A DNA stretch of 5,926 nucleotides from a virus (IMGVR_UViG_2547132272_000001:1-5926), one strand, 5' to 3'; shown: positions 1 to 5,926, counted from the first letter of the stretch. Notes: generated from the letters alone by a model not told the origin. Numbers and translations: made by a program.

Positions 1-1014
1 ACACTCTCCAGGAAACCCGGGGCGGTTCACAAAGGCTCATTTTGTGATGTTGTCAGTATTTCAATTCGTGGATCTCTTCTTCGTATGACTGGCAATCCTT
101 CTCGTTGGGGAAGGGTTGATAATTTGTTTGGATTAACAAGCGTAGATGCTTGTGTTTGTGTTTTTAACTCAATTCTTTTGGATTTGGGTTTACCATTATT
201 TACTAAGTGCACTAGAATTTTTCCTTCTCAAACCAAAGAGAATGAGCGTGTTCATTTGATATCTGATGGTGCGATAATAAAAGAACTTCATATTACTACT
301 AACAAATCTGTTGGTAAGGGAAATGAAGATGATTATATATCTGCATTATCTACTCAGCCTTACCGTAATAGTTTGCCTCGTTTGCATTCTAATGGTAAAT
401 CTGTTGATTGGCTTTCTAAAAAAGGTAATGTAAACCTTATCTATCCGTGTGTTTATAATAAAGCTTCTGAATTAGAGCTTCATAGCCTCACAAAAATTAA
501 AAACAAGTTTGGTAGTGATTCTTCTGAATATAAATATTTATTGAATGTTATTGATTATTGTCGTGAATCTGGCATTGTGCGTTTTGAACAAAAATTAAAG
601 TCTAGATTTTTACAGCGTAAAGGTTTGTGTTATTGGGGACTTTCTGATTATTCTTCCTTAAAGCTTTTACAGGATGAATTTGTAGAAATTGATAAAAAGA
701 TTTCGGTGACATCTATGGATTTTGAAACTATTAGTGAACATTTAATCTCTCAGGGTGTTGTTGACTCTTTGCGTTCTGCTAACACAACAGCAATGTACGC
801 TATTCAATGGATGCATGGTCATTCTTTTGATTTAAATAAAAAACAGGTTCAAACTCATCGCGCTCGTTTGCGTAAAATTGGTATTGATATAGCTCAGAAA
901 TGTAATATTTCTAAGTTTAGTCCTGTTGTTGTAAAACACACCAGAGAAATAACTGTTTCGGATTGTGTTATTCCTTCCTGGTATATAAAGTCATCTCATT
1001 TACGTGTAGCTTAA
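1..1014 (+). CDS. gII: Replication initiation protein pII (rolling-circle nickase), 5'-truncated by the window edge; the reading frame is open from base 1 and stops at TAA 1012-1014
   Basis: Frame 1 has no stop from position 1 to 1014. The translation aligns by eye with the remembered M13 pII middle and C-terminal regions (e.g. NLFGLTSVDACVCVFNSILLDLGLP vs M13 NVFGTTDLALCSEALLLNFANSLP; GIVRFEQKLKSRFLQRKGL vs M13 GLVRFEARIKTRYLKSFGL). It sits immediately upstream of gV, as in Ff phages. Confidence 0.85.
   Translation, partial: TLSRKPGAVHKGSFCDVVSISIRGSLLRMTGNPSRWGRVDNLFGLTSVDACVCVFNSILLDLGLPLFTKCTRIFPSQTKENERVHLISDGAIIKELHITTNKSVGKGNEDDYISALSTQPYRNSLPRLHSNGKSVDWLSKKGNVNLIYPCVYNKASELELHSLTKIKNKFGSDSSEYKYLLNVIDYCRESGIVRFEQKLKSRFLQRKGLCYWGLSDYSSLKLLQDEFVEIDKKISVTSMDFETISEHLISQGVVDSLRSANTTAMYAIQWMHGHSFDLNKKQVQTHRARLRKIGIDIAQKCNISKFSPVVVKHTREITVSDCVIPSWYIKSSHLRVA
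715..1014 (+). CDS. gX: pX-like protein: in-frame internal initiation within gII giving the C-terminal 99 aa
   Basis: An in-frame ATG at 715 (MDFETISEHL...) lies at the position corresponding to the M13 pX start (M13 MNIYDDSAVLDAIQ) relative to the conserved GxVRFE block. In Ff phages pX is the C-terminal part of pII made from an internal start. No strong Shine-Dalgarno is visible upstream, so the start is assigned by homology of position only. Confidence 0.45.
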   Translation: MDFETISEHLISQGVVDSLRSANTTAMYAIQWMHGHSFDLNKKQVQTHRARLRKIGIDIAQKCNISKFSPVVVKHTREITVSDCVIPSWYIKSSHLRVA

Positions 1015-1017
1015 CAT

Positions 1018-1023
1018 TAGGTG
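1018..1023 (+). promoter_or_regulatory. Shine-Dalgarno-like TAGGTG, 4 nt upstream of the gV ATG
   Basis: TAGGTG at 1018-1023, then ATG at 1028; it lies in the 13-nt gap between the gII stop and the gV start. Confidence 0.5.
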
Positions 1024-1027
1024 TATT

Positions 1028-1300
1028 ATGATTAAGATTGAAATTAAACCTTCGCAAGCTGTTGCAGATACTCGTAGTGGTGTTTCTAAGAGCACTGGTA
1101 AACCATATACTATATCTGAGCAGTCTGGTTATATTTTTCTTGGTGGGGATTATCCTCAGTTATTTAAAATACCTCTCGAACAAGGCCAGGCTCCATATGC
1201 GGCTGGTTTATATGAGTTGCATCCATCCAGTATTTTTGTTGGCGATTTTCAAAAATTACGTGTTGGTAGAATTATTTTAACTCCTATTGCAGGGAAGTGA
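1028..1300 (+). CDS. gV: ssDNA-binding protein pV (90 aa)
   Basis: The translation MIKIEIKPSQAVADTRSGVSKSTGKPYTISEQ... is closely similar along its length to remembered M13 pV (MIKVEIKPSQAQFTTRSGVSRQGKPYSLNEQ...; ...EGQPAYAPGLYTVHLSSFKVGQF vs EQGQAPYAAGLYELHPSSIFVGDF). Size and position after gII match Ff. Confidence 0.9.
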   Translation: MIKIEIKPSQAVADTRSGVSKSTGKPYTISEQSGYIFLGGDYPQLFKIPLEQGQAPYAAGLYELHPSSIFVGDFQKLRVGRIILTPIAGK

Positions 1301-3636: not shown

Positions 3637-3639
3637 TTT

Positions 3640-4710
3640 ATGGCTATTTCAGCGTATGTTGGTGTTCCTGGCAGCGGTAAAACGTATGAGGTTGTTTGCA
3701 ATGTTATAATTCCGGCTGTTAGTTCTGGTAGAAGAGTTGTTACTAATATCTATGGTTTGAATGCTGATAAAATTTATGACTATTGTGTTTCTCATAAAAA
3801 AACCTCTAAAGATGGCTTAGGAGAGGTTATTTTAGTTAGTAATTCTGATGTTCAGGATGAAAAATTTTTTCCTTATAAATTAGATGATGGTTTGTCTGAT
3901 GATTCCTTTTGCAAGCCCGGTGATTTGATTTGTGTTGATGAAGTTTGGCGTATATGGGATAACGATAAATCAATTCCTGCATTTCATCGTTCTTTTATTG
4001 CTGAGCATCGTCATTTTAATGATGAATCTACAGGTATTTCATGTGATTTAGTTGTTATTAATCAATCTGTTTCTAATTTACCTCGTTTTATTAAAGACAG
4101 AGTTGAAACGACTTATCGCATGAGTAAATTAGTTGCACTTGGCCTTAGAAATCGTTATCGCGTTGATGTTTTTACTGGTGTTAAGTTATTTAAAACTAAT
4201 TTGGCCTCCAGTTATCAATGCAAATATAGCCCTTTAATTTTCCCTTTATATAAATCCCATGAAAACGGGCAGGGGACTGAACTTGTTGTTGATAAGCGTC
4301 AAAATGCGCTTTCATCTAAAAAAATTATTATCGTATCTATTTTGTTGTTTATATCATTTTGTTTTTCTATTTATTATCTATATCATTTTTTCTCTGGCTT
4401 TACTGATGGCAATCAAATAAAAAATAGTACATCCGTTGAGGCTTCTTATGATAGTTATAGTGTATCTTCTGATTCTTCTTCCTCTTCTGCTGCTTCCTCT
4501 TTATCGACTTCTGTTCCGGTTTCAGCCCCGCCTCGGTCAAAAACTTGGCGAATTGCTGGACGAATCAACACAGGAAGTGGCGATTTTTATATATTATCTA
4601 ATAGTGTTGGTGACATTCGTTTTGAGCCTTCTTCTCGATTCAATTTTAGTGGAACATTAACTTCTGCTGTTATCGATGGTGAGTTTATTTCTCGTTACAC
4701 TGGTGAATGA
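3640..4710 (+). CDS. gI: Assembly protein pI (356 aa), a Zot-family P-loop NTPase: N-terminal cytoplasmic ATPase domain with Walker A GVPGSGKT (nt 3661-3684), one transmembrane segment (about residues 228-251), and a C-terminal periplasmic domain with a Ser-rich tract
   Basis: Walker A motif 8 residues from the N-terminus, as in M13 pI (GKLGSGKT). An acidic-hydrophobic stretch LICVDEVW is positioned like a Walker B. A single hydrophobic helix IIIVSILLFISFCFSIYYLYHFF. Position between gVI and gIV. Confidence 0.9.
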   Translation: MAISAYVGVPGSGKTYEVVCNVIIPAVSSGRRVVTNIYGLNADKIYDYCVSHKKTSKDGLGEVILVSNSDVQDEKFFPYKLDDGLSDDSFCKPGDLICVDEVWRIWDNDKSIPAFHRSFIAEHRHFNDESTGISCDLVVINQSVSNLPRFIKDRVETTYRMSKLVALGLRNRYRVDVFTGVKLFKTNLASSYQCKYSPLIFPLYKSHENGQGTELVVDKRQNALSSKKIIIVSILLFISFCFSIYYLYHFFSGFTDGNQIKNSTSVEASYDSYSVSSDSSSSSAASSLSTSVPVSAPPRSKTWRIAGRINTGSGDFYILSNSVGDIRFEPSSRFNFSGTLTSAVIDGEFISRYTGE

Positions 4711-4711
4711 T

Positions 4712-5926
4712 ATGCGTAAGTATCTGTTTCTATTTGCTTTGTTGTTTTGTGCTAATTCTTTTGCTGGTAAGGTTTTATTTGAACTCGACAGGGTTAAATT
4801 ACCAACTGCTATCAACATGATTTATTTAGATTTATTTAATAAGCCTTACATGCTTTCTCCTGAGCTTGTGTCTGATGACAGACTTGTCTCTTTTAGAATC
4901 ACTGACAATATTGATTCATATGAATTTGTTCGTCGTTATCTTAATAATATGAATATTAGAATATCAACAAAGGGTGGGGTTGATTACCTGTCATCTTTTA
5001 TTCCTGATAAACCCAAAGAGCCTGTTTTTGATTTTGTTTACACACCTAAATATCGTTCTGTTTCTTATTTATCTGATATTTTAAGAGGTAAATTTTCAGG
5101 GCGCTTTGGTTCTTCTGGTGATATTGGTGATTCATCTCAGCTTTCTGCTGGTCAAGCCAGCTTTGGTTCTGCAAGTGATTTTATGAATCGTTCTGGTGAT
5201 GTTCTTGTATATTTTGGTTCTAAATCTGATATTGCAAAAATTAATAAGATACTTCCTCTTATAGATGTGCCTGTTTCTGAGGCTTTAGTTTATGGTTATG
5301 TTTTTGAAGTGCAGTCTTCTGAAAAAAACGGTTCTGGATTGGCGCTTGCTGCAAAACTTCTTTCCGGGAAAGTTAATATTGGCATTGGTGCCTCTCAAAC
5401 CTTTGATAATTTTATAAAAATCAATACTGGATCTCTTGATGCGCTGTATGAGCTATTCAAAACAGATAGTCGTTTTCATGTTGTTAGTTCTCCTCGTTTG
5501 CGTGTGCGCAGCGGCTCCAGTGCTTCATTTAGCGTCGGTTCTGATGTGCCTGTTTTGGGGCAGGTTACTTATCAGGGTGAAAGACCGGTTCAGTCTGTTG
5601 AGTATCGTTCAAGTGGTGTGATTTTTAATGTTTTGCCATATATTCGCCAGAATTCTATCGATATTGCTATCAGGCAGGAGTTATCTAACTTTGTTAAAAC
5701 TGATACAGGCGTTAATAACAGTCCCACGTTAATTAAACGTGGTGTTACTACAGATGTTTCAGTTTCTGATGGAGATATTATTTTATTGGGCGGACTTGCT
5801 GAAACTAAAGATAGTGATGCTGAAACAGGATTTTCGTTTCTTCCTGGCTTTCTTTCTTCCTCATCAACTGAAAAAACAAAATCGGATATTGTTGTAATCC
5901 TTCAGGTTAAGAAAGTATCAGGCTGA
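4712..5926 (+). CDS. gIV: Secretin pIV (outer-membrane export channel), 404 aa from ATG 4712, with predicted signal peptide MRKYLFLFALLFCANSFA; TGA stop at 5924-5926
   Basis: The C-terminal half has secretin-family hallmarks that I recognise from M13 pIV and type II secretion GspD (VSSPRLRVRSGSSASFSVGSDVP... vs M13 LSVPRILTLSGQKGSISVGQNVP; DGDIILLGGL vs DGQTLLLGGL; ...ETGFSFLPGFLSS...). The ATG at 4712 follows GGTGA (4702-4706) and overlaps the gI stop region. The ORF track opens further upstream at 4676, but the signal-peptide-like N-terminus begins at 4712. Confidence 0.9.
   Translation: MRKYLFLFALLFCANSFAGKVLFELDRVKLPTAINMIYLDLFNKPYMLSPELVSDDRLVSFRITDNIDSYEFVRRYLNNMNIRISTKGGVDYLSSFIPDKPKEPVFDFVYTPKYRSVSYLSDILRGKFSGRFGSSGDIGDSSQLSAGQASFGSASDFMNRSGDVLVYFGSKSDIAKINKILPLIDVPVSEALVYGYVFEVQSSEKNGSGLALAAKLLSGKVNIGIGASQTFDNFIKINTGSLDALYELFKTDSRFHVVSSPRLRVRSGSSASFSVGSDVPVLGQVTYQGERPVQSVEYRSSGVIFNVLPYIRQNSIDIAIRQELSNFVKTDTGVNNSPTLIKRGVTTDVSVSDGDIILLGGLAETKDSDAETGFSFLPGFLSSSSTEKTKSDIVVILQVKKVSG

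Follow-up and report, generated by a model that had tools for sequence, protein, structure and literature searches.

The 5,926-nucleotide (nt) stretch of viral DNA analysed in this study (IMGVR_UViG_2547132272_000001:1-5926, referred to below as the window) carries the genes of a filamentous phage (Inoviridae). As argued below, it very probably represents about 80% of a temperate phage of 7,425 nt, inserted at the chromosomal dif site, whose replication initiator gene (gII) has been cut by an insertion sequence (IS).

Genes and features of the window

Eight genes, all located on the + strand and separated by very short gaps, occupy 97.8% of the window in the order gII, gV, an open reading frame (ORF) of 76 amino acids (aa), gVIII, a hairpin, gIII, gVI, gI and gIV (Table 1); the longest ORF of the - strand encodes 67 aa. 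Pfam names six of the eight genes, one of them (gVIII) with a score under the cut-off, and leaves the 76-aa ORF and pIII unnamed; all eight window proteins fall into existing phage families of the PHROGs database. The attributes by which inoviruses are recognised, i.e. a Zot-type (pI) ATPase, a small coat protein, pII together with pV, a genome of 7,425 nt and core genes confined to one strand, were all found. Hydropathy profiles fit the topologies expected of the products, with signal-like N-termini on pVIII, pIII and pIV. The G+C content is about 35%, and the + strand contains 39% T (51-60% at third codon positions; M13 has 35% T overall).

Table 1. Features identified in the window (positions counted from its first nucleotide)
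Feature	Position	Strand	Basis or remark
Right terminal end of an IS3-family element	1..29	+	ends …GGGGCGGTTCA; the contig start lies within it
gII, rolling-circle initiator, If1 type, truncated	28..1014	+	residues 44-371 of the intact 371 aa
gV, single-stranded DNA-binding protein, 90 aa	1028..1300	+	Pfam Phage_DNA_bind 1e-23
76-aa ORF, at the position of Ff gVII/gIX	1307..1537	+	phrog_3679 5e-22
gVIII, major coat protein precursor, 73 aa	1547..1768	+	phrog_2186 3e-25
G+C-rich hairpin, 9-bp stem	1779..1800	+	RNA fold
gIII, candidate adsorption/termination protein, 486 aa	1859..3319	+	position, topology, phrog_3942
gVI-equivalent, minor coat protein, 102 aa	3328..3636	+	DUF2523 2e-10; phrog_974 1e-23
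gI, Zot-family assembly ATPase, 356 aa	3640..4710	+	Zot 7e-26; phrog_197 1e-85
gIV, outer-membrane secretin, 404 aa	4712..5926	+	Secretin 5e-22; phrog_1012 2e-129

The gII product matches the Pfam families G2P_X_C (5e-25) and Phage_CRI (25.1 bits in the intact allele), and the intact homologue belongs to phrog_702 (3e-105). Its frame possibly includes a gX start at the in-frame ATG 715 (99 aa), where the Shine-Dalgarno (SD) sequence is weak. The product of the 76-aa ORF, which has no match in Pfam and whose PHROGs family has no assigned function, shows by hydropathy a C-terminal transmembrane (TM) helix (residues 48-74) and a basic tail. Homologues occupy the equivalent position in prophages of E. 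coli 300709 (62% identity) and PEC148 and in the Citrobacter replicon pB72D. Taking into account its position, the TM helix, the basic tail and this conservation in relatives, we infer that the 76-aa protein may act as the minor coat protein of the leading virion tip.

The pVIII precursor is composed of a signal peptide (MKSKLLLPVLLLSSSAVFA), an acidic N-terminus, a TM core (residues 36-64) and a basic C-terminus. Its PHROGs family is labelled "virion structural protein", and its match to Pfam Phage_Coat_B (8e-4) scores 19.8 bits, the cut-off being 23.5. The gene is preceded by a strong SD sequence, AGGGAG, and followed by the hairpin at 1779-1800 and an A/T-rich stretch containing a weak T tract; when 1765-1830 is folded, an outer 6-bp stem is added and the free energy (dG) is -17.2 kcal/mol. 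The structure appears terminator-like and resembles the hairpin found after Ff gVIII. A scan for consensus terminators left it unflagged and returned weak sites only, and the sole Rfam match in the window and the downstream region was at chance level (E = 0.11). An additional ORF of 59-62 aa (1707-1895, +), extending from the last part of gVIII over the hairpin into the beginning of gIII, has been called as a gene in the window contig and in a metagenome contig described below; lying out of frame over real genes, it is probably spurious.

The candidate pIII starts with a signal-like segment and ends in a membrane anchor (residues 464-486). It has no match in Pfam, and the family to which it belongs in PHROGs (phrog_3942, 3e-146) is without assigned function. 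Homologues are rare: they form 11 clusters, from Escherichia, Salmonella, Proteus, Providencia and an Acinetobacter metagenome-assembled genome. An AlphaFold2 model based on an alignment of 11 sequences was poor (mean predicted local distance difference test score, pLDDT, 56.7; predicted template modelling score, pTM, 0.39). A Foldseek comparison of this model with the PDB gave nothing under E = 0.17, and no receptor-binding fold could be assigned.

The assembly ATPase pI contains a Walker A motif (GVPGSGKT), a single TM segment (residues 222-252) and a Ser-rich periplasmic tail. Within this tail, at about residues 281-307 (window 4480-4560), there is a low-complexity serine-rich run, SVSSDSSSSSAASSLSTSVPVSAPP. 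The pI family is large, with 695 clusters at E <= 1e-20 in Enterobacterales and Pasteurellales. The secretin pIV begins with the signal peptide MRKYLFLFALLFCANSFA when translated from ATG 4712; an alternative start at 4676 would overlap gI. The corresponding family, phrog_1012 ("protein IV of M13"), covers pIV over its full length from the 4712 start.

Integration at dif and the lesion in gII

The window corresponds to nt 1-5926 of the Escherichia draft contig AEJW01000265.1 (assembly GCA_000208465.2). A protein identical to the window pI is on record for Escherichia sp. TW09231; this freshwater isolate (water, Michigan) of cryptic clade III is most probably the source. A perfect 28-nt E. coli dif site lies at 6375-6402 of this contig, i.e. 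448 nt downstream of the window end, and the contig runs past it into chromosomal genes encoding an AraC-type regulator and an invasin-like protein. Since the contig starts in an IS and continues through dif into host genes, the phage is a chromosomal prophage and not a free phage. The same phage sits between hipBA and dif in five E. coli assemblies (L003-L007, contigs of 44-534 kb), whose copies are 100% or 99.97% identical to window nt 28-5926. In these copies gII is uninterrupted, and two small reverse ORFs and a hybrid attL are present. Strains with the intact allele include those of assemblies GCA_013744235.1 and GCA_014151065.1. The unit length, measured from attL to dif in L004, where dif is perfect at 12736-12763, is 7,425 nt.

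The initial annotation had held that a free phage and an integrated one could not be told apart in this sequence; extension settles the matter through the dif site, the hybrid attL of the intact copies and the flanking host genes. Its description of the core genome as near-complete overlooked that nt 1-29 belong to an IS and that gII carries an inactivating lesion.

This lesion is placed precisely. The first 34 nt recur at 100% identity in many unrelated positions of E. coli genomes, and in E. coli FORC 064 an identical end lies 14 nt beyond an annotated IS3-family transposase with a programmed frameshift. At nt 29 the IS end reads GGTTCA, with the terminal …CA expected of the inverted repeat; the transposase gene itself falls outside the window. 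Homology to uninterrupted gII begins at nt 28, which corresponds to codon 44 of the 371-aa protein. Over its full length the window is matched at 100% identity by two metagenome contigs, from ENA ERZ27241745 and JGI 3300026224, which extend into the same IS by another 111 and 98 nt, respectively (their nt 1-140 and 1-127). The occurrence of an identical IS-gII junction in three assemblies indicates that the junction is real. The probably spurious 1707-1895 ORF mentioned above was called in the first of these contigs. Downstream, both carry the same host genes as the TW09231 contig (100% identity). Either the two samples contained this lineage or strain, or a clade has become fixed for the disrupted allele.

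The first 43 codons of gII are thus lost to the IS, and the rest of the gene is identical to intact alleles, from which it follows that this copy lacks an intact replication initiator and appears to have suffered the lesion recently. Without a related pII acting in trans, this copy is very likely unable to replicate. Its morphogenesis genes carry no lesion and do not differ from those of copies with an uninterrupted gII. It could be argued from this identity, and from a gII frame that is open from nt 1, that the prophage is fully functional, the IS being an artefact of assembly or ATG 85 (the first ATG of the frame) giving rise to a working, shortened pII of 309 aa. We regard this as very unlikely, because the junction is shared by three independent assemblies, two of which extend into the IS, and because the missing 43 residues (62 when counted from ATG 85) lie within the region matched by phrog_702 and phrog_24563. 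The gII frame remains open back into the IS, outside the transposase frame, and gene callers therefore report chimeric "pII" proteins of 337-374 aa.

Contigs of 7,425-7,463 bp with the same proteins, some of exactly 7,425 bp, are found in several assemblies. Together with a related 7,439-bp circle in E. coli A37 and a 10.2-kb Citrobacter "plasmid" that is an inovirus, these unit-length molecules might suggest that the window derives from a free phage genome or a plasmid-like replicative form. Collapsed tandem prophages yield unit-length contigs as well, however, and neither the passage of the window contig from an IS through dif into chromosomal genes nor the placement of the phage between hipBA and dif in the five assemblies agrees with such an origin, which we consider hardly credible.

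The attL site of the intact copies (GGTGCGCATAATGTAGTACGCGTTATGT, L004 5311-5338) shares its XerC arm with dif and differs from it in the central region and the XerD arm; it precedes a hairpin resembling a terminator and, further on, a second dif-like site in the opposite orientation (the whole at L004 5311-5425). When the phage side of attR (L004 12716-12763) was joined to the phage side of attL, the predicted attP junction read …CACATTGGTGCGCATAA|TGTAGTACGCG… Folded in silico, the + strand of this rebuilt attP forms a forked hairpin (dG -37.9 kcal/mol) in which the XerC arms pair with each other, as do the XerD arms, leaving a bubble of 6 nt in the centre. Gene calling gave ten genes in the interval from attL to dif; no recombinase domain was found in any of them, and no integrase. 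Judged from these sequences, the phage is an inovirus of the CTXφ/Ypfφ type, predicted to integrate at dif through XerCD.

In the life cycle that we propose, pII would nick the replicative form and drive rolling-circle synthesis of the + strand, and pV would coat and sequester the resulting single-stranded DNA (ssDNA). The inner-membrane Zot-type ATPase pI, together with the phage's own secretin pIV, would then extrude the DNA, pV being exchanged for pVIII during the passage, with the 76-aa protein capping the leading end and pIII and pVI the trailing end. For integration, the forked hairpin of the + strand attP would mimic dif, enabling host XerC and XerD to recombine it with dif without a phage integrase. 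This integrase-free route, based on a forked hairpin and XerCD, is known for CTXφ, and it has been proposed for Ypfφ (PMC4266046).

Several points weigh against the interpretation of the window as part of a dif-integrated temperate phage with a disrupted gII. An obvious pXI is missing, since pI has neither an in-frame ATG nor a GTG ahead of its TM segment. Between gIV and dif, the 448 nt fold no better than shuffled sequences (z = -0.13), and the packaging signal and the origins were not located. The mechanism as a whole (virions, replicative form and use of XerCD) is drawn from homology. The assembly is most probably that of TW09231, an assignment based on the source name of the pI protein. 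Finally, the contig has no sequence beyond the IS, which either simply inserted into gII or removed its 5' end together with attL and the regulators.

Some further observations concern the region between attL and gII. The larger reverse ORF by attL encodes 176 aa in L004 (5409-5939, -) and 136 aa in L003 (5409-5819, -). The two alleles differ by one base (TCTCCAGAAG versus TCTCTAGAAG), which converts TGG of the coding strand into the stop codon TAG; this ORF has no Pfam match and a marginal PHROGs match. The smaller one, of 60 aa, belongs to phrog_2503 (no assigned function) and is placed like the rstR-like regulators of Ypfφ and CTXφ. Upstream of the intact gII, in the divergent-promoter region (L004 6128-6259), there are several GTGCAC/TGTGCAC-like motifs, which may be operator or origin repeats.

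Relationship to characterised filamentous phages

The initial annotation presented the window as the core genome of an Ff-like phage. The eight-gene + strand map in Ff order is real, being supported by ORF layout, Pfam and PHROGs far beyond chance, and the best matches of pV, pI and pIV are all to Inoviridae, in agreement with an inovirus core genome. The label "Ff-like" holds for gene order and fails for the proteins, which comprise an If1-type pII, pIII, pVI and pVIII of non-Ff kinds and the 76-aa ORF. Similarly, the resemblance to M13 that had been claimed for five proteins was confirmed for pV and for the C-terminal half of pIV; pII and pI are related to their M13 counterparts only via the Pfam family, a relationship undetected by pairwise BLAST, and a kinship of the pIII C-terminus with that of M13 pIII was rejected at the sequence level (hhalign probability 0.2). 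The remark that gVIII and the N-terminal part of gIII are unlike those of Ff, IKe or If1 proved correct, as neither gave a BLAST match.

Identities to M13, If1 and IKe were determined by local tblastn. In M13, similarity is found for pV (56%, 1e-26) and for the C-terminal half of pIV, i.e. the secretin domain (27%, 3e-17), and none for pII, pIII, pVI, pVIII or pI; a megablast search with the window returned no Ff record. The two phages have Pfam families in common only for pII, pV, pI and pIV. The M13 pVI belongs to DUF5455 and that of the window to DUF2523, M13 pVIII is a Phage_coatGP8 protein whereas the window pVIII leans towards Phage_Coat_B, Phage_Coat_A (6e-66 in M13 pIII) is absent from the window pIII, and M13 pVII is assigned to Inovirus_G7P_2. 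Moreover, the pair gVII and gIX of Ff phages is represented in the window by the single 76-aa ORF. The likeness to Ff comprises the gene order, the hairpin after gVIII and the T-rich + strand. In the case of IKe, pV (52%) and pIV (31%) are similar, and the window pII, pI, pIII, pVI and pVIII have no BLAST match. If1 (Infulavirus) has a replication protein, ORF320, that is 73-75% identical; its pIV is 25% identical (the range for M13, IKe and If1 being 25-31%), and its remaining proteins (pV, pVIII, pIII, pVI and pI) show no BLAST similarity. If1, which is specific for the I-pilus, is non-integrating.

With an Ff-identical gene order and a pV that is 52-56% identical to those of M13 and IKe, the phage might be viewed as a diverged true member of the Ff group (genus Inovirus) or of the IKe/UPφ lineage (Lineavirus). 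This is extremely unlikely. Neither M13 nor IKe gives BLAST similarity to its pII, pIII, pVI, pVIII or pI, and the Pfam families of pVI, pVIII, pIII and pVII are other ones, to which the hhalign result for pIII against M13 may be added. Furthermore, integration at dif, observed for the window phage, is foreign to Ff and IKe, and the identity of about 70% to IKe reported for UPφ, in the genes covered (PMC7307601), is not shared by the window phage.

In layout and lifestyle, the phage matches the published description of Ypfφ of Yersinia pestis (YPO2271-2281 in strain CO92) and CUS-1 of E. coli O18:K1:H7 (PMC4266046). Both are temperate phages integrated at dif by the host XerCD, with attR rebuilt as an intact dif, an inverted XerC/XerD site pair proposed to act in ssDNA, and tandem arrays (PMC4266046). 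Small opposite ORFs by attL are followed in these phages by replication, morphogenesis and secretion modules, the last with a secretin of their own (PMC4266046). Ypfφ (8.7 kb) and CUS-1 (7.1 kb) carry extra ORFs by attR, whereas the window phage has a 448-nt non-coding stretch between gIV and dif. A scan of genome contigs with pII yielded 19 loci in other Gammaproteobacteria, none of them from Yersinia, and the records listed in a blastn search with gII-gV included no O18:K1 reference strain, the presence of such strains in the collection being unchecked.

Phages of the UPφ901/UPφ group are also integrated at dif, often in tandem, in E. coli and other Enterobacterales, and have the Ff gene order with reverse ORFs by dif (PMC7307601). 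Their virion and assembly genes are IKe/I2-2-like, with about 70% protein identity (PMC7307601), and in this they differ from the window phage, in which BLAST detects no resemblance to IKe for pI, pIII, pVI or pVIII. A pI cluster of 621 members from E. coli, Salmonella and Klebsiella (P0122) was tried as a representative of UPφ and rejected; having no IKe pI match, it represents yet another lineage. The window phage shares with CTXφ the predicted attP, in the form of a forked + strand hairpin with a central bubble, the use of XerCD and the lack of an integrase. Close protein similarity to CTXφ was not found, the only link being a weak match to the CTXφ Zot PHROG (2e-9). CTXφ, a phage of Vibrio cholerae, encodes no secretin and relies on EpsD of the host; it carries an RstA/RstB/RstR module and toxin genes.

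The idea that the locus is a host island encoding a Zot toxin and a type II secretin can practically be dismissed: it is prompted by the RefSeq names of relatives ("zonular occludens toxin family protein", "type II secretion system protein GspD"), but both genes sit in a full inovirus set (pII, pV, pVIII, pIII and pVI), with a T-rich + strand of 35% G+C, dif-type att sites and tandem arrays.

Mosaic structure, distribution and relatives

The sequence comparisons show that the genome is a mosaic, composed of an If1-type gII, an Ff/IKe-type gV and a third virion/export module. The window pII type is spread over Gammaproteobacteria, and the virion/export module is common to other Enterobacterales prophages and to metagenomic inoviruses from gut and saliva. 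The nearest virion/export modules found are those of PEC148 and pB72D (pI 57%, pIV 62%), of the E. coli 300709 prophage (remaining genes 38-67%, beside pII at 98% and pV at 90% identity) and of Dulem virus 52 and Inovirus D_HF5_61, two inoviruses known from saliva and not cultured (pI 45%, pIV 50%). In the morphogenesis genes, 62% identity is the highest value reached by any of the five. Throughout this group, pVI is 38-54% identical, an ORF of 75-90 aa precedes gVIII, and the N-terminal parts of pIII differ from that of the window. The replication protein is of the window type in PEC148 (78%) and 300709 (98%) and of another type in Dulem virus 52, D_HF5_61 and pB72D. The phage represents a mosaic, dif-integrating lineage with the layout of Ypfφ/CUS-1 and UPφ, for which we found no name in the literature searched.

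It is possible, although we hold this tentatively and somewhat short of even confidence, that the lineage is an undescribed one of genus level in Escherichia and Salmonella, with a pIII that has no detectable relation to the characterised pIII proteins and a single 76-aa protein replacing pVII and pIX. If true, this would imply a receptor of unknown kind, possibly other than a conjugative pilus. Ff synteny is common to many unrelated inovirus lineages and alone is no sign of Ff kinship. The phage adds one mosaic lineage to the dif-integrating inoviruses of Enterobacterales, beside Ypfφ/CUS-1 and UPφ, and its practical value is small. Inoviruses integrated at dif can affect the fitness and virulence of their hosts, and the IS-inactivated allele and the intact alleles, which are otherwise identical in sequence, form a clean natural pair for probing the effect of the prophage on the host.

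The phage is already contained in public data, namely in genome annotations (its proteins are annotated in NCBI records of Escherichia and Salmonella), in existing PHROGs and in IMG/VR (UViG_3300026224_000007). None of 5,426 complete E. coli genomes carries it over at least 80% of its length; relatives of any part are present in 22-29 of these genomes (29 by blastn with the window gII-gV).

Related prophages are repeated in tandem at the hipBA-dif locus: E. coli 300709 has three of them, and PEC148 and UTAK-3 have two or more each. The differences between the internal junction of the 300709 array and its terminal site are precisely those that an exchange on the XerC side would produce. At least four other inovirus lineages, including that of 300709, occupy this locus in E. 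coli, often in tandem, and each of them pairs replication and morphogenesis modules differently. In the prophage of strain 6EVA, a gene for a HigA-family antitoxin adjoins dif.

Related inoviruses have also been deposited as plasmids. The "plasmid unnamed4" of E. coli A37, a circle of 7,439 bp, is a related inovirus of which the same strain has a chromosomal copy, and Citrobacter pB72D (10,242 bp) consists of an inovirus backbone with an ISKpn21-family transposase gene. A 272-kb E. coli plasmid (NZ_CP173491.1) contains at 186503-187207 a gVI-gI segment 71% identical to the window, which suggests that inovirus sequences also sit on plasmids.

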